64,000 bases of DNA from Minisyncoccota bacterium (GCA_029881675.1 JAOUMD010000002.1:10228-74227); one strand, 5' to 3'. Positions 26,709-34,207 are shown, counted from the stretch's first letter. Notes: generated by a model from the sequence alone, not told the origin. A program made the numbers and translations.

Positions 26709-26945
26709 TTAAGCCTTAGTAAATCCAAAGAGAAGATAAACAAGCCCCCCTGAGAGAACCATAAAGATAAGAAGGAAGCCTAAGTTAGATTTAAGATTTT
26801 TTGAAGCTTTATCTGGATCAGCTGCATCTGCACTAATGATGATTACCATCGCAATAGCAAGCCAAATAATTCCTCTTAGAACAATAGAACCAAAGCTATC
26901 TATAGCAAAGGCACTAATAACAAGCTCACGAATAGTTTCTTCCAT
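26709..26945 (-). CDS. small membrane protein (2 TM)
   Basis: ORF, two hydrophobic segments. Confidence 0.35.
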   Translation of the reverse strand: MEETIRELVISAFAIDSFGSIVLRGIIWLAIAMVIIISADAADPDKASKNLKSNLGFLLIFMVLSGGLVYLLFGFTKA

Positions 26946-27009
26946 ACTTTAATATGATTTGTTTTATGGGTAAAAGCAAGTGCTTTTTTTAATCTTGGGA
27001 ATCTTTTTG

Positions 27010-27093
27010 TGCCGAGAGAGGGACTTGAACCCTCACGAGAGTGATCTCATGGGTTTTTGAGACCCACGCGTCTACCGATTCCGCCACCTCGGC
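27010..27093 (-). tRNA. tRNA-Leu (anticodon CAA), long variable arm
   Basis: Minus strand reads GCCGAGGTGGCGGAATCGGTAGACGC-GTGGGT-CTCAAAA-ACCCAT-(long arm)-GAGGGTTCAAGTCCCTC-TCTCGGCA; cloverleaf folds, anticodon CAA. Confidence 0.85.
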
Positions 27094-28498: not shown

Positions 28499-28902
28499 TG
28501 AAGAAATATTTTTATTACTTCCTTTTTTTCTTTTTAGTTTTGATTGATCAACTTTCTAAGTTTTGGGCAAGCTCAATGGGTTTTGTAACAGAAAATGGGG
28601 GAGTTTCATTTGGTTTGATGAATGGATTTGGAGGAGAGATTTATGTTCAACTGATTCTTTTGTTAGTTCTTTTTTATATCCTTCATAAGTCAATTATGCC
28701 TGCATTACTGAAAACATTTTTTCTATCAGGCGTTGTTTCTAACACAATTGATCGTCTTTTCCTTGGTGGAGTAGTGCAAGATTGGTTGCCTATACCTCTG
28801 GTAGGAATAAGGAATAACTTTGCCGACTGGTTTATCTTCCTCGCGATTGTACTTTATGTAATAAAATACGGATATGAATATAGAAATAATTTACGAAGAT
28901 AA
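28495..28902 (+). CDS. lspA: lipoprotein signal peptidase II
   Basis: DQLSK, NTIDRLFLGGVVD, FADWFIF motifs of peptidase A8. Confidence 0.75.
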   Translation: MMKKYFYYFLFFFLVLIDQLSKFWASSMGFVTENGGVSFGLMNGFGGEIYVQLILLLVLFYILHKSIMPALLKTFFLSGVVSNTIDRLFLGGVVQDWLPIPLVGIRNNFADWFIFLAIVLYVIKYGYEYRNNLRR

Positions 28903-29731
28903 GGACATTATGGCCATTAATAAACCACCGGGAGTGGTTGTTAATGAAGCTAAAACTGTCAATGAGGATACTATTCAAAAGTGGTTTTGGGAAAAGCATG
29001 ATGGCTTTAAAGACATTTCCACAGCATCTGCTAAAAAAGAGTATAAAAAACTAATCCCAGAAGATTTTGATGATAGCTTTGGAACACCAGAAGAAATATT
29101 TCAAACAAGACAAGGAATAGTTCACAGATTAGATAAAGAAACCTCTGGAATATTACTTCTAGCAAAAAACCCAGGGGCTTTGGTTAACCTACTATCTCAA
29201 TTTAAAAAACGTACTACTAAGAAAAAGTACTTGTGTTTAGCGCATGCTAAGTTTGGTGCTCCTGCCGACACTATCTCATATCCAATAGCTCGTTCTACAC
29301 AAAATAGAATGAAGTTTAGAGTAGATATTGAGGGAAGAGAAGCAACTACCGCGTATAAAGCAGTAGACTTTTATGACAAGCTAGATTTAGAAAAAATAGA
29401 AAAGAGTAATTTAGAGAATAAAGAAACATTATTATTAAAGAAATATAAGAATTCATATCAAGGGTTTAGCCTAGTAGAATGTTGGCCAAAGACTGGTAGA
29501 ACTCATCAAATTAGAGTTCATATGGCCCATATTAAGCATCCATTGGTAGGGGATAAGGTATACCTTGGTAAGAAGAGAGTTAAGCTTGATCCTATCTGGT
29601 GTAAGCGTCACTTCCTTCATGCAAGTAAGATAGAGTTTACTCATCCAAAGACTGGTGAAGTTGTAGAGTTTGAAGCTGAATTACCTAATGACCTTAAAAA
29701 AGTTTTAAAGCTTTTGAAGAAGGTTGATTAA
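28874..29731 (+). CDS. rluD: RluA-family pseudouridine synthase
   Basis: Catalytic HRLDKETSGILLLAKN motif. Confidence 0.85.
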   Translation: MNIEIIYEDKDIMAINKPPGVVVNEAKTVNEDTIQKWFWEKHDGFKDISTASAKKEYKKLIPEDFDDSFGTPEEIFQTRQGIVHRLDKETSGILLLAKNPGALVNLLSQFKKRTTKKKYLCLAHAKFGAPADTISYPIARSTQNRMKFRVDIEGREATTAYKAVDFYDKLDLEKIEKSNLENKETLLLKKYKNSYQGFSLVECWPKTGRTHQIRVHMAHIKHPLVGDKVYLGKKRVKLDPIWCKRHFLHASKIEFTHPKTGEVVEFEAELPNDLKKVLKLLKKVD

Positions 29732-29808
29732 ATTTTCCTATCTGTTTAAATAATTAATTTTTTAGCTATTCTTTTGCATAGTTTGTTTTGACATGCTTTA
29801 ATGTTTTT

Positions 29809-31008
29809 ATGCCTACACAACTAGAAGGAAAAAAACTATTTGATTCAATTATTGCTGCTACAGGCTCAGAGAACAGAAGGAAGATGCTTGTAGAAATAAT
29901 GGATTGGATGGAAAAGCACGGTTTTAGTACGGATCATATTAAAGTTCATAAAACTTCACCTGACAGTGAAGCTGGAATACCAGAATCTGCTTCAATGGAA
30001 GCAGACAAAGTGGCCTGGGAAAAAACTTTAGTTGTTGCACTGGCTTTAGGATTAATAGGTAGAGAAGAAGTCTCTCAAGAACTATTAGATAAGTGGGAAA
30101 ATATCATTATCTTAGATTCTAGTGAGAAAGGTCTTAATTTGGATCAAAATGTGGCTGTCTTTGGAGGTGATGTGGTAACACTTGTCGGAAAAGATATAGA
30201 CCCAGATAGCCACTATGAAGAGCTATTAAAGTTAAGTAGAGATCTTGTGGGTGATGAAGAGCAGGATAGGGTGACAATTGAAAAGGATAAAGAAAAGATT
30301 AAAGATTTATATCGTAATCAAGATGGATTTTATGTAATGTACAAGGTCGGGATTGCATTGCTTGGGAATGACGAAGAAGGTCAGACTAGGGGAGTAACAG
30401 TAGCTTGGGATATATTTTTGAAGTTTAATCAATTACCTGAAGAGATGATTAATGATGCATATGAGGAAGGTGGGGATGCCTATTCTGTTGGCCCAAGAGT
30501 AGACCTTGCAAGTATATATGAAGATCATCGTGATGAGGATTTTGGTATTTTTGTCAGACAATCAGATTCTCCCGAAGATCTCTGGAAACCAATTGAAGTA
30601 GAGGTGATGAAAGGTCTTGTTATTGGAGGCTTGTTACCTCCACACCTGTGTCTTCAATTATTTGCTGAAATTGATCAGACAAAACCTATAAATCAAGGTA
30701 AAATAGAACCTAGAAAACCAAAAATAGATATAAGTAAAAAACCTATGCCAGAGAGATTCAGAAGCTATTTAGATAAAGTAAATATAGTAAATAATGAAGG
30801 AAGAACTACCTTAGTTTTACCTGAAATTAATGATGCTCAAGAGACAGTAGTTGAGTTAGAAGAAGACGGCAGCCTCGGAAAAATACCTGAAAGAGCAGTA
30901 TTACTTCATTTAATGAGACTAGTTGATGATGAGAATAATCAGGCCTTAGTACATTCACTGTTTGACTATATTGTTCAAAATAAGTTGCCTATTAAGCAAG
31001 AAAGTTAA
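29809..31008 (+). CDS. hypothetical protein, paralog A (ORF-track 29788 TTG start probably spurious)
   Basis: Residues 1-300 align with ORF 31326..32276 (IIAATGS, VFGGDVVT, MKGLVIGGLLPPHLCLQLF versus MKGLVVGGLLPPHMCLDLF); extra ~100 aa C-terminal tail. Confidence 0.5.
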   Translation: MPTQLEGKKLFDSIIAATGSENRRKMLVEIMDWMEKHGFSTDHIKVHKTSPDSEAGIPESASMEADKVAWEKTLVVALALGLIGREEVSQELLDKWENIIILDSSEKGLNLDQNVAVFGGDVVTLVGKDIDPDSHYEELLKLSRDLVGDEEQDRVTIEKDKEKIKDLYRNQDGFYVMYKVGIALLGNDEEGQTRGVTVAWDIFLKFNQLPEEMINDAYEEGGDAYSVGPRVDLASIYEDHRDEDFGIFVRQSDSPEDLWKPIEVEVMKGLVIGGLLPPHLCLQLFAEIDQTKPINQGKIEPRKPKIDISKKPMPERFRSYLDKVNIVNNEGRTTLVLPEINDAQETVVELEEDGSLGKIPERAVLLHLMRLVDDENNQALVHSLFDYIVQNKLPIKQES

Positions 31009-31106
31009 AGAAACTATAAACCCATAGTTTAGTAATTGACAACTATATTTAAATATTGTCTAATGCTTGAATACACAGACGTTAGAAGCGAAGCACCAAT
31101 TAATTG

Positions 31107-31158
31107 TTCTTTGCTCCCAAGATACCGAACCTAGAGATAGGGGGAAAACCAAGTGAGT
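31107..31158 (+). repeat. 52-nt leader motif copy 1 (TTCTTTGCTCCCAAGATACCGAACCTAGAGATAGGGGGAAAACCAAGTGAGT), followed by AAAAATAATTAAAGGTGTTTTTTTATTATTT hairpin
   Basis: Direct repeat, four copies in this window. Confidence 0.7.
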
Positions 31159-31229
31159 AAAAATAATTAAAGGTGTTTTTTTATTATTTAGCGTTAAAAA
31201 TTATGAACAGTGAAGATGCCTCTTTGTGC

Positions 31230-31281
31230 TTCTTTGCTCCCAAGATACCGAACCTAGAGATAGGGGGAAAACCAAGTGAGT
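31230..31281 (+). repeat. 52-nt leader motif copy 2 (identical to copy 1), followed by GAGAAGCTTAAGGAGG RBS
   Basis: Direct repeat. Confidence 0.7.
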
Positions 31282-31325
31282 GAGAAGCTTAAGGAGGTAT
31301 TTTTTATTAATTATTAGGTAAATAG

Positions 31326-32276
31326 ATGATGTTAAACCCAAGAGAGAAAATGCCACATTTAATGATTGCAGCTACGGGATCTAGCAGAAGGGTAGCAAAG
31401 ATGGTCGAAATGCTAGATTACTTTGAAGAGCATGGTTATAGCCCACATCATATTAGATATGGGAGTCTTTCTCCTGATGATGAAGCAAATGTAAATGAGT
31501 CTGATTCCTCGAATGCAGGAGAAGTAGCATTTCAGAAAGTATTAGCAGTGGCCTTATCCTTGGGTATTATTAAAGATGAGGAAGTAGAAGAAGATTTATT
31601 ATTACAGTGGAAAGATATTAACAGAATTAATCCCCAGGAAAAAGAAGTTGATTTGCGTGAGCGTGTTTGTGTTTTTGGTGGAGACGTTGTTACTTCAGTT
31701 AGTGCAAAAAATGGTAGAGAAGAAGATTACAGAGAGTTGTTAAAGTTAACAAGAGACCTATCTGGTGAAGAAGAATATACAGATGGAGATATTGCTATTA
31801 TTGAGAAAGATAAGGCAGGAATAGTAGAACTTTATACCAGTCCTGAAGGCTTTTTTGTAAAATATAACATTGGATTAGCTTTGCTAAGTAATTGTGAAGA
31901 ATTTAAAACAAAAGGCTTGATAGTCTCTTGGGAGATACTTTTAAAACTGAGACCATTTCCTTTAGAAATGGTTGAAGCTGCCTACGAACAAGAAGGGAGT
32001 GCATTTAAAGTAGGTCCAAGGTTAGATTTAGCAAGTTTGGCTAAAGATTATCTTGACGAAGACTTTGGAATTATAGTTAGAGAAGAAGGTAAATCAGAGG
32101 CTCAATGGTTGCCAGTAGAATTTCAAGTTATGAAGGGTCTTGTCGTAGGAGGACTATTACCACCACATATGTGTCTAGATCTTTTTGCAAACTTAAATGA
32201 AGTTAATCCCTCTAGTGGGGAAGTGGTAAAGCCTTTAAAGGCAGAGATAAAAATTAGTTCTGTAGGAGTCCTATAA
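31326..32276 (+). CDS. hypothetical protein, paralog B
   Basis: Paralog of 29809..31008; strong RBS. Confidence 0.5.
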   Translation: MMLNPREKMPHLMIAATGSSRRVAKMVEMLDYFEEHGYSPHHIRYGSLSPDDEANVNESDSSNAGEVAFQKVLAVALSLGIIKDEEVEEDLLLQWKDINRINPQEKEVDLRERVCVFGGDVVTSVSAKNGREEDYRELLKLTRDLSGEEEYTDGDIAIIEKDKAGIVELYTSPEGFFVKYNIGLALLSNCEEFKTKGLIVSWEILLKLRPFPLEMVEAAYEQEGSAFKVGPRLDLASLAKDYLDEDFGIIVREEGKSEAQWLPVEFQVMKGLVVGGLLPPHMCLDLFANLNEVNPSSGEVVKPLKAEIKISSVGVL

Positions 32277-32355
32277 TTTACTAATTGACATTTGTTTGTA
32301 AATATTGTTTAATACCCAAATACACAGAAGTTAAGTAGCAAAAGCACTAAAAAAG

Positions 32356-32408
32356 TTTTTGCTCCCAAGACACCGAACCTAGAATGCTAGGGGGAAAACC
32401 AAGCGAGT
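32356..32408 (+). repeat. leader motif copy 3 (variant: GCTCCCAAGACACCGAACCTAGAATGCTAGGGGGAAAACCAAGCGAGT) + same A/T hairpin
   Basis: Direct repeat. Confidence 0.7.
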
Positions 32409-32484
32409 AAAAATAATAAAGGTGTTTTTTTTATTATTTAACAACAAGTATTAGTAAAAGAGACAGCAGAGTTACCTTCAAAGG

Positions 32485-32536
32485 TTCTTTGCTCCCAAGA
32501 TACCGAACCTAGAAATAGGGGGAAAACCAAGTGAGC
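32485..32536 (+). repeat. leader motif copy 4 + RBS
   Basis: Direct repeat. Confidence 0.7.
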
Positions 32537-32572
32537 AAGAAGCTTAGAGGTATTTTTTTTATTTGAAAAATT

Positions 32573-33337
32573 ATGGAAATATTTAATAAAAAACATTTAG
32601 CAAGTATTATTGCAGATAAGCGTACTGTTTATCCTAACTCTACCAGTGCCCAAAAGGCTGAAGGTTTGCAAATGGTCTTAAATGAAGCTTTTGGACAAGG
32701 TTCAGTTGCGGTTGAAGTAGTTAGAGCTCTAGCAGCAGACTATGAAGAAACAGATCTTCCCAATGCTAGAGAAGTAGCAACACAAAAATCAGTCTATTTC
32801 CAAGAACAATTAGGTGCAGGAACTGTTACAGCAGGGGCTGATACAGTTTTTAGAATTAAAAAAGATGGAAAATGGGTTAATTTATCTAAATTAGAAAGAT
32901 TAGGAAGAGAGCTAACACAGCAAGAAACAATGGCTCAATATGAATCATTGTTTAATGTTCTTTGTAATCCAGAAAATGGAGTAGGGGAGATGATGTGGGA
33001 TGTTTCTTTAGCTATCACCAATGGTGGAACTGATACATTTAATGAAAGAATCTATATTCAGTATGAGCCAATCGATAAAGAATTATTTGAAGGTTTCTTT
33101 TGGGAAGCTGTGGACAGTGGCATGATTTATAAATCAAATTCTAGAATGGCAATGGTAGAAATGTTAGCAGTGTCAGGAGCTGTAAAGAATATGGCCTTTT
33201 TAGGCAAAGGGGGAGAGTTAAAGAGAATGTCTAGAGAACCAAATAAAGAGTTATTACAATTAGCTATTACCGATGTTGTTACCACTATGCCTACTGCATA
33301 TTTGAATGGATTAACAATGGATAATAGGGTTTTCTAA
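32573..33337 (+). CDS. hypothetical protein C (254 aa), unrelated to A/B but carries the same leader cassette
   Basis: ORF only. Confidence 0.45.
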   Translation: MEIFNKKHLASIIADKRTVYPNSTSAQKAEGLQMVLNEAFGQGSVAVEVVRALAADYEETDLPNAREVATQKSVYFQEQLGAGTVTAGADTVFRIKKDGKWVNLSKLERLGRELTQQETMAQYESLFNVLCNPENGVGEMMWDVSLAITNGGTDTFNERIYIQYEPIDKELFEGFFWEAVDSGMIYKSNSRMAMVEMLAVSGAVKNMAFLGKGGELKRMSREPNKELLQLAITDVVTTMPTAYLNGLTMDNRVF

Positions 33338-33368
33338 ATAAACAATTTATATTAATAAGTAAATAAAA

Positions 33369-33400
33369 ATCCGCTACTTTAGAAGAAGCGGATCTTTTTG
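33369..33400. terminator. bidirectional intrinsic terminator
   Basis: ATCCGCT-(11 nt)-AGCGGAT stem flanked by A5 and T5 runs. Confidence 0.6.
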
Positions 33401-33407
33401 TTGATTG

Positions 33408-33692
33408 TCATTGTTTTTGGTTTTTAGACCATTGCCAATGACGGTATTGACTACGGTGTCCCATGATTAACCATGGAACCCGCCTTATCAGATAGTAGGC
33501 AAATAATACTACAGCACACCATGCTACTTCTTCTGGACCCAACCGAACGGTAAAAGTCCATTCAAAGGATTTTTCATCGATGTCCATCCTGATTGCAAGT
33601 GCTCCCAGAACAGGTATGACGAAAAATAACAAGTGTTGCCATAGAGCCATTTTAACTTTGACTACCATAGGCTCTTTGTTTGGATCTTCCAT
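33408..33692 (-). CDS. small membrane protein (94 aa, 2 TM, Trp/Arg-rich tail)
   Basis: Strong RBS AGGAGG 8 nt before ATG; GC-richer than surroundings. Confidence 0.45.
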   Translation of the reverse strand: MEDPNKEPMVVKVKMALWQHLLFFVIPVLGALAIRMDIDEKSFEWTFTVRLGPEEVAWCAVVLFAYYLIRRVPWLIMGHRSQYRHWQWSKNQKQ

Positions 33693-33713
33693 TTGTATGT
33701 TTCCTCCTATTTG

Positions 33714-33949
33714 TTAATGTTTCGTTTGTATTGTGCTACACGAAACATTCCCATTAGGCAAAAAACAATGGTAGGAATTCTTTTGTAGAGGTAAAACATC
33801 ACCCCTAAGACAATTCCGACACCAAGCTAAAAGAGAGAATACTTGACCACCAGAGCGGCCAATACGCAGATGATAGCTGTGTAATACAGTTGCCACCGGG
33901 CAGTCTTATATCCAAAGAGCATCAGTTTTGGTTGTGTATCATCGTTCAT
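33714..33949 (-). pseudogene. small membrane protein ORF interrupted by in-frame TAG (MNDDTQPKLMLFGYKTARWQLYYTAIICVLAALVVKYSLF*LGVGIVLGVMFYLYKRIPTIVFCLMGMFRVAQYKRNINK*)
   Basis: Hand translation of the minus strand; the ORF-track ORF 33714..33896 is in a different frame and looks spurious. Confidence 0.3.
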
Positions 33950-34207
33950 AGGTTTTTACACCCCTTTCATGAAATAGTGATTAAACACGGCCAAGGTTAG
34001 ATATTATAGGATTAAATACTGGTTAAGTCAATTAATTTAAACAATATTTAATAATTTGAAGTGATATACTACTTCTATGCATAAATCATCAATTCCCCAC
34101 AAGCTTGCATATTCCACACTCTAATTTGAGTTTTGTTTTTTGGTTACTACAGATTAAGTAGTGACTGTTATATTTATTTAATTGTTATTTTTAATTTAAG
34201 GATTTAT

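Follow-up and report, generated by a model that had tools for sequence, protein, structure and literature searches.

A leader RNA of Patescibacteria with a conserved internal loop inside its terminator hairpin, a candidate purine-responsive attenuator upstream of nucleotide-salvage genes

Two genes, B and C, in a 64,000-nt stretch of DNA from a Minisyncoccota bacterium (GCA_029881675.1, JAOUMD010000002.1:10228-74227; the whole stretch is hereinafter referred to as the window) are each preceded by the same cassette, in which one 52-nt motif stands twice. The locus (29788-33400) raises the question of what this motif is and what it controls. Its structure, position and downstream genes point to a signal-responsive attenuator of a purine-salvage regulon, a reading that we consider highly probable; within it, a metabolite as the signal has about an even chance and a protein a distinctly smaller one. 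Our reading as a whole, held with about even confidence, is that the motif belongs to an uncatalogued class of cis-acting leader RNA of Patescibacteria, most likely a riboswitch for a purine-related metabolite that would act through transcription termination. A cis-regulatory structured RNA, riboswitch-like or an attenuator, had been proposed from the window alone (hereinafter the sequence-only reading), and the comparative evidence supports that proposal well.

A 25-nt core of the motif (TTGCTCCCAAGAYACCGAACCTAGA) occurs exactly four times in the window (31111, 31234, 32359 and 32489, all on the plus strand), where shuffled sequences gave an expectation of 0. A covariance model (CM) of the element, run over the whole 64 kb with filters off, returned only the same four copies at 80-108 bits, the next match scoring 24 bits, which confirms the earlier count of four copies and none elsewhere in the window. 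The copies form two tandem pairs, one ahead of B and one ahead of C, each behind one promoter-like site (Table 1). The two cassettes (31009-31328 and 32277-32575), described earlier as the same, align with 84% mean column identity, TTGACA-N17-TCTAAT / TTTAAT included. The TTGACA-N17-TNTAAT sites went unlisted in a simple promoter scan of the window, as their -10 hexamer has a base other than A at position 2. The part of the sigma70-like promoter claim that stands is that the hexamers are present and conserved: cassette 2 and the related loci L001, L005, L007 and L008 keep both around a spacer that varies, and it is on this that the putative promoters rest.

When each copy was folded with its flanks, the 52-nt motif proved to be the upper part only of a hairpin of 100-130 nt (z=-1.7 to -4.3). 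An element consists of a variable lower stem (P0/P1), a near-invariant internal loop, a variable apical hairpin (P2) and a U-run right after the stem. The lower stem is made by pairing of the motif-flanking sequences; its arms are GCACCAAUUAAUUGUUCUUUGCUC and GAGUAAAAAUAAUUAAAGGUGU in copy 1 and GCCUCUUUGUGCUUCUUUGCUC and GAGUGAGAAGCUUAAGGAGGU in copy 2, different in sequence with complementarity kept. Within the motif, GCUC pairs with GAGY, CCUA-GNRA-UAGG forms the separate apical hairpin (loops GAGA and GAAA), and the remainder is a large internal loop with the consensus 5' U-Y-GCUC-C-CAAG-NN-AC on one strand and 3' G-(A)AAACCAAG-N-GAGY on the other. Two CCAAG strands face each other in the loop, followed by NNAC-RAA on one side and GG-AAA on the other; in register they give C-G, A.A, A.A and G-C, a dyad-like arrangement. 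The U-run follows directly on every window copy (6-8 U; 6-9 U across all elements). Two details of the sequence-only reading give way to this structure. The CUCCC/GGGGG stem is not the pairing that is conserved; it clashes with the conserved GCUC/GAGY pairing and, within an alternative fold, reaches significance in only about 30% of the elements. The U-run assigned to a small A/T terminator hairpin is actually preceded by the long stem of motif-flanking sequences.

To search for relatives, the two conserved boxes were combined into a degenerate pattern. Among 185,579 species genomes the pattern returned 29 stretches, comprising 21 true elements and 8 chance matches inside genes, and a metagenome scan added 40 further stretches in which true elements were again mixed with chance matches inside genes. 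Pattern and CM searches together yielded 54 distinct versions in metagenome-assembled genomes (MAGs) of Patescibacteria, with Pacebacteria, Woesebacteria, Paceibacterota or 'Patescibacteria group' as the specific group names where the records give one. The true elements share features that lie outside the pattern, namely a 5' GCGRARRCAYC arm that pairs with GRUG plus the U-run, a YUUUC/GAAAR extension of P1, and the U-run itself. A single copy is the rule in other genomes, and in most of them it directly abuts the start codon.

The CM, trained on 36 elements, scored 53 elements at 48-117 bits and found 0 of 13 chance pattern matches. It also found elements in loci that had been reached via protein homologs and not by the DNA pattern (L079, L081, L082). 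In the CM alignment of the 53 elements, 94.9% of cells pair, against 46-57% with the partner slid, and double-sided changes are present in 6 of the 9 P0 pairs. The apical region comprises 47-51 different sequences of 21-57 nt, all of which fold as a hairpin (mean z=-2.9 against shuffles); MAFFT with RNAalifold alone recovered P0 and P1 only, and P2 was analysed sequence by sequence. The loop nucleotides are invariant in the 54 distinct cores, and they are also conserved in the elements found without the DNA pattern (through protein homologs or the CM only, including the second copy at L077). The covariance search across relatives, which the sequence-only reading had named as a check, thus gave stems that covary (P0, P2) around a fixed loop of unpaired nucleotides, the combination expected of a riboswitch.

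Copy number, orientation and covariation led us to reject two other readings of the motif. A mobile or REP/MITE-like intergenic repeat (repetitive extragenic palindrome or miniature inverted-repeat transposable element) without regulatory role would account for four copies within 1.5 kb and for a cassette duplicated together with its promoter. Only four copies are present in 64 kb, however, with no terminal inverted repeats or target duplications; the stems covary instead of being copied, and position and strand relative to the genes are fixed, so that we regard a repeat of this kind as barely credible. A trans-acting small RNA (sRNA) gene, in which copy 1 would be the sRNA and copy 2 a target-like leader, would suit the promoter-like site upstream of copy 1 and the terminator-like end downstream of it, and the sequence-only reading had considered an sRNA that shares sequence with its target 5' untranslated region. 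It is disfavoured by the single copy abutting the start codon in most genomes, by two copies that are of the same sense and not complementary, and by an orientation to the downstream gene that is fixed in all loci; we hold it to be very improbable, if somewhat less so than the repeat.

Further observations concern the relatives themselves. Loci of B and C homologs carry one or two copies upstream, as the check proposed earlier had asked, and A homologs are without the motif; in the syntenic relatives the copies have differing apical hairpins, and one lineage has a 50-nt insertion. The tandem pairs of L043 (14171-14422, minus strand) and L055 (637-889, minus strand) mix two apical subtypes, the first copy being of the window type (CGAA-CCUAG...CUAGG-GGG) and the second of a CC-G-stem-AGA-GG type; the members of a pair have thus not necessarily arisen by recent duplication of one another. 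Contigs L011, L015, L017, L019, L021, L023, L026, L027 and L034 are titled 'uncultured Pseudomonadales bacterium' yet carry the element, which is specific to the Candidate Phyla Radiation (CPR), and some of them have near-identical counterparts among Pacebacteria or metagenome contigs (L021 against L031, L042 and L068); their organism label looks wrong.

The form and position of the element suggest how it would act. In every complete element, a U6-9 run lies 14-25 nt past the core, so that a stable hairpin is immediately followed by a U-run, as in an intrinsic terminator. A simple terminator scan misses these terminators, because the 'loop' exceeds its 8 nt. Both members of each window pair have the hairpin and U-run, not just the first. 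The earlier division into a terminated, sRNA-like copy and a leader copy does not hold, since all four copies share this form and single copies are usual elsewhere; the window pairs are tandem attenuators. In every locus with downstream sequence, an open reading frame (ORF) follows on the same strand, its start -2 to about +150 nt from the end of the U-run, and the element thus occupies the place of a riboswitch, a same-strand 5' leader with a terminator and/or occlusion of the Shine-Dalgarno sequence (SD). The SD is carried in the 3' arm in window copies 2 and 4 (Table 1) and in some other elements (e.g., GGAGGUG-U7-UUG), and lies separately downstream in others (L026, L053, L067, L077b, L012), which argues that termination would be the shared mechanism. 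Start codons 8-12 nt past the U-run leave no room for another promoter.

A constitutive structural element of strongly expressed genes, one that would terminate transcription, stabilise the 5' end or be processed by RNase III without sensing a signal, would also be marked by a hairpin and U-run in every copy. Its long double-stranded stem would suit RNase III, and it also lies just behind upstream genes, such as A and B. A plain terminator or processing site, however, needs no invariant 25-nt loop across distant lineages while the stems drift; genes begin 8-25 nt past the U-run in many loci, so that read-through is needed, and the link to one metabolic area would be left unexplained. We consider a constitutive element unlikely.

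Two variants of the leader were observed. At L027 (3420-3560 and 6260-6390), a second terminator, GC-rich and canonical (AAACCCCCGTTCGCTGCGGGGGTTTTT), comes after each element and ahead of the SD of the gene. An ATG mini-ORF of 14-15 codons lies in between, but the two copies do not conserve its frame; the arrangement could be a two-stage leader. In a family of 330-390 aa (L021, L025, L029-L031, L040, L054; e.g., L025 4067-4100), the leader ends in GGAGGUG-U6/7 and the best start is a UUG overlapping the U-run, so that the terminator U-tract doubles as the SD-to-start spacer.

The first genes downstream of the elements belong to at least 18 families, in accordance with the earlier claim that the cassette is conserved independently of its cargo. 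Those annotated by Pfam or NCBIfam include adenosine deaminase (Pfam E=4e-50) and a CBS-less IMP dehydrogenase (E=4e-123). Phosphoribosyltransferases (PRTs) of at least four kinds were found, including HGPRT at the NCBIfam cut-off, as well as operons of a PRT with GMP synthase (PRT-guaA) and one with a deoxynucleoside kinase (E=1e-30). GNAT acetyltransferases, a methyltransferase, and weak Maf-like and MazG-like proteins were also present. About half of the families are unannotated. The annotatable genes make up a nucleotide-salvage set centred on turning salvaged purines into GMP, as judged from their sequence matches, and the adenosine deaminase, IMP dehydrogenase, PRT-guaA, HGPRT, deoxynucleoside kinase and Maf-like genes fall in one metabolic area, as the regulon of a riboswitch would. 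Among the unannotated proteins, the 330-390-aa family shows H..HD-like motifs by eye and has no Pfam match. PDB sequence searches with the HD-like and with 250-aa 'D-type' proteins gave no match, and hhalign comparisons of the D-type protein and of a Maf-like 259-aa protein with the A/B profile were not significant.

In the mechanism that we propose, a factor would recognise the invariant loop and change the efficiency with which the terminator hairpin forms. In the favoured form, a ligand in the conserved loop would make the helix continuous, so that the terminator would form in time, as would the SD-sequestering stem of those copies that have one, and the genes would be off; without the ligand, RNA polymerase would read through. 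The ligand may be guanine, a guanine nucleotide or another end product. In the window, the two elements in series before B, and again before C, would sharpen the response. A metabolite is favoured as the ligand because some 25 fixed loop nucleotides, set between stems of free sequence, give the element the look of an aptamer, because the rod-shaped xanthine riboswitch has a similar layout, because tandem occurrence is found in some riboswitches, and because the downstream genes are those of guanine riboswitches in Firmicutes.

Several points weigh against a metabolite-sensing riboswitch. P0 and P1 together have about 20 pairs and should form without ligand, which makes a purely thermodynamic switch difficult to envisage. 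No competing antiterminator that is conserved was found; a single alternative pairing was tried, that of the 5' P1 strand with the P2-3'/J2-1 segment, and it is good in about 30% of the elements (z<-1.5) and not in the others. At the variable loop positions, no covariation pointing to tertiary pairs was found. The invariance of the loop is partly by construction, because the search pattern behind most instances already prescribes much of the core. As several downstream families are without known function, the regulon can be read in part only. Established riboswitch classes usually show varied platforms; here, one uniform platform is built into all representatives, and this uniformity, together with the dyad-like loop (CCAAG/CCAAG), would fit a dimeric RNA-binding protein equally well.

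A protein-dependent attenuator is accordingly the alternative that we treat as possible, though clearly less probable than a riboswitch. A protein, perhaps a dimer or of PRT fold in the manner of PyrR, would bind the loop in dependence on a purine effector and promote or block the terminator. Besides the symmetry of the loop, with 5'-CCAAG on both strands, the uniform platform and the lack of a conserved alternative RNA structure, it would fit that several of the regulated genes encode PRT-fold proteins, one with an extra N-terminal region of about 100 aa (L027). No candidate regulator is consistently linked to the element, however, and some 25 invariant internal-loop nucleotides between free-sequence stems are also the standard look of an aptamer. 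In PyrR attenuation of pyrimidine operons, nucleotide-pathway leaders contain a conserved hairpin with an internal loop next to an intrinsic terminator, several of them in series per operon, and the present elements are alike in standing before nucleotide-pathway genes, in hairpin and in serial arrangement. PyrR-type systems, however, bind an anti-antiterminator hairpin of a different consensus and not the terminator, and their alternative antiterminator is plain to see; in the present elements, it is the terminator hairpin that contains the conserved loop, with no conserved alternative structure beside it.

The riboswitch reading was compared with the known classes. Searches of Rfam 15 at the gathering threshold (window and 18 related loci) and at E<=10 (three elements) returned only tRNAs or noise, and full-text literature searches turned up no account of a riboswitch or RNA motif in Patescibacteria, CPR or Microgenomates or with this gene set, in keeping with the earlier description of the system as undescribed. 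As a riboswitch or attenuator, the system is of a known type; its class appears to be new, and it is unusual for such an RNA to be embedded in the terminator. The xanthine-I riboswitch (NMT1 motif, RF03054) has P1, a large conserved J1, a short P2a, a small bulge J2 and a variable P2b in a coaxial rod (PMC8266621). Many elements are built alike, from P1, a large loop, CC/GG, a G/AGA bulge and a variable hairpin, and both RNAs are of hairpin type and belong to the purine pathway. The likeness is not uniform, as window-type copies have the bulge on the 5' side. J1 of NMT1 has 5' GAAGCG with only AU on the 3' side, whereas the elements here are near-symmetric (CCAAGNNAC... / ...AAACCAAG) and have no Rfam match even at E<=10. 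Moreover, NMT1 is found in Proteobacteria ahead of purine-oxidation genes, and the present elements in CPR ahead of salvage genes, with the stem itself as the terminator.

The purine riboswitch family (including guanine-II, xanthine-II and 2'-deoxyguanosine riboswitches) resembles the element in its genes, which serve purine salvage and GMP synthesis (xpt, guaB, guaA, hpt, add-type), and in acting often by termination. Tandem arrangement is known for purine-pathway riboswitches (PMC5912903). These classes, guanine-II among them, are three-stem junctions with loop-loop contacts (PMC12445698). In contrast, the elements here are an unbranched hairpin and gave no RF00167 match at gathering or at E<=10.

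Taken further, the data suggest a joint reading to which we give slightly less than even weight: a riboswitch class, so far confined to Patescibacteria, would use an aptamer inside the terminator stem, without a separate platform, to sense a guanine-related purine, whether base, nucleotide or alarmone, and its regulon would mark unannotated families as new nucleotide-scavenging enzymes of these host-dependent bacteria. The families so marked would be the Maf-like A/B and C types, the 250-295-aa family and the 330-390-aa family with HD-like motifs. To our knowledge, Patescibacteria have no de novo nucleotide synthesis and live on scavenged nucleotides; control of purine salvage would therefore be central to their biology. 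If validated, the element would provide a new pair of RNA fold and ligand, a genetic switch for a group lacking inducible tools, and, through its regulon, a way into several protein families whose function is unknown. A binding-type loop inside a terminator hairpin is unusual, and it poses the question of how termination is modulated without an evident competing structure.

Searches of Pfam and NCBIfam gave no match to proteins A, B or C (Pfam Maf PF02545 and Ham1p_like included), and to this extent the earlier statement that A and B have no recognisable family stands; at the level of predicted structure, it does not stand for B. The AlphaFold2 (AF2) model of B (pLDDT 81.4, pTM 0.83) matched Maf 2amh best in a Foldseek search of the PDB (E=1.8e-6, probability 1.00, TM 0.60 on the target), followed by YceF, ASMTL-Maf and RdgB/HAM1/ITPase. 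The model of C is of low confidence (pLDDT 61.9); its ten best Foldseek PDB matches were all Maf, at E=1.4e-4 to 7.7e-4 and TM <=0.43, and its hhalign comparison with the A/B profile was weak (E=2.6e-4, 43% probability; the alignment starts at GADTVF / GGDVVT). The modelling check that had been suggested thus gave a clear Maf/ITPase result for B (pLDDT 81) and, for C, only Maf among the ten best from a weak model. B is putatively a nucleoside-triphosphate pyrophosphatase-like enzyme with a predicted Maf/ITPase fold. C is probably a very divergent Maf-like protein; taken alone it is only suggestive, and the predicted Maf-like assignment is secure for B only. B and C, regarded earlier as unrelated, are probably distant members of one nucleotide-pyrophosphatase superfamily, as judged from the Maf matches of both models and the weak profile alignment. 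Maf-like B and C would fit a nucleotide-salvage regulon. By eye, the N-terminal (A)ATGS-x-RR and the GGDVV/GADTV of these proteins resemble the SPRR and GADTVV of Maf, in addition to the likeness in predicted fold to Maf/ITPase (HAM1, RdgB), which is weaker for C. Unlike the Maf/ITPase proteins, A, B and C lack a Pfam Maf match, show 9-16% identity and have 60-200 extra residues.

The block of A, B and C (Table 1) is flanked by an RluD-type pseudouridine synthase gene and glyA. A and B are paralogs, as had been stated, with 49% identity over 299 aa (E=2e-100) and a C-terminal extension of about 90 aa in A relative to B. No motif is present upstream of A, which starts 77 nt past the rluD-like gene; its orthologs in relatives likewise lie 12-77 nt behind the pseudouridine synthase without a leader element (window 29732-29808; L005 5933-6000; L007 5982-6000). 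Protein C is identical to an NCBI-listed protein of a Candidatus Pacebacteria MAG, which places the window in a CPR/Patescibacteria genome. Homologs are scarce (10 clusters for B and 13 for C among 5.8 billion proteins searched), and the loci of both are syntenic, with the pseudouridine synthase gene on one side and glyA on the other.

Table 1. Positions of genes, promoter-like sites and leader elements in the window
Feature	Position	Strand	Description and basis
RluD-type pseudouridine synthase gene	28874-29731		5' of gene A; Pfam E=4e-26
Gene A	29809..31008	+	399 aa; paralog of B; ORF list
Gene B	31326..32276	+	316 aa; putative divergent Maf/ITPase-fold protein; AF2 model and Foldseek
Gene C	32573..33337	+	254 aa; probably very divergent Maf-like; weak AF2 model, Foldseek, hhalign
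Promoter-like site, cassette 1	31036..31064	+	TTGACA 31036-31041, 17-nt spacer, TCTAAT 31059-31064; read from the sequence
Promoter-like site, cassette 2	32285..32313	+	TTGACA 32285-32290, 17-nt spacer, TTTAAT 32308-32313; sequence and alignment to cassette 1
Leader element 1	31069..31195	+	CM 87.5 bits; fold -31.8 kcal/mol, z=-4.3; U-run 31176-31182
Element 1, parts			long hairpin 31078-31195; P0 5' arm GAAGCACC 31090-31097; core 31113-31158; P0 3' arm GGUG 31172-31175
Element 1, P2	31130-31141	+	CCUA-GAGA-UAGG
Leader element 2	31196..31317	+	CM 79.6 bits; fold -34.9 kcal/mol, z=-2.9, SD paired
Element 2, parts			hairpin 31212-31304; core 31236-31281; U-run 31300-31305; start codon of B 20 nt further
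Element 2, SD AAGGAGG	31291-31297	+	inside the 3' arm of the stem
Leader element 3	32319..32444	+	CM 108 bits; fold z=-3.4; core 32361-32408; U-run 32425-32432
Element 3, P2			CCUAG-AAUG-CUAGG, one pair longer; P2 fold
Leader element 4	32447..32572	+	CM 97.2 bits; core 32491-32536; U-run 32553-32560
Element 4, parts			P2 CCUA-GAAA-UAGG; 3' arm AGAGGUA; start codon of C 12 nt past the U-run

The rluD-glyA interval is a variable 'island' (window 28874-34133; L001, L004, L005, L007-L009, L040, L049, L052, L077, L079, L082) with syntenic flanks, lgt, lspA and rluD on one side and glyA, a methyltransferase gene, an AP endonuclease gene and folD on the other. Its cargo differs among relatives, comprising A/B/C types, the 250-295-aa family, the HD-like family, PRT-guaA and a methyltransferase, and is mostly placed behind a leader element. 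The cassette was gained by the shorter paralog (B type) only and not by the A type, and in the window it seems to have been duplicated, together with its promoter, between B and C.

Ordinary terminator-like hairpins were also noted in the window. The 24-bit CM match at 26886-27002 (E about 0.04) was rejected as an element; it is without the conserved core and was judged an ordinary terminator-like hairpin (AAGGCACU...AGUGCUUUUUUU) with a T-run, adjoining tRNA-Leu (27009-27093, minus strand). A conventional terminator after C (33370-33399), with a TCCGCU...AGCGGA stem and then UCUUUUU, lies between C and a convergent 94-aa ORF (33408-33692) and may serve both.

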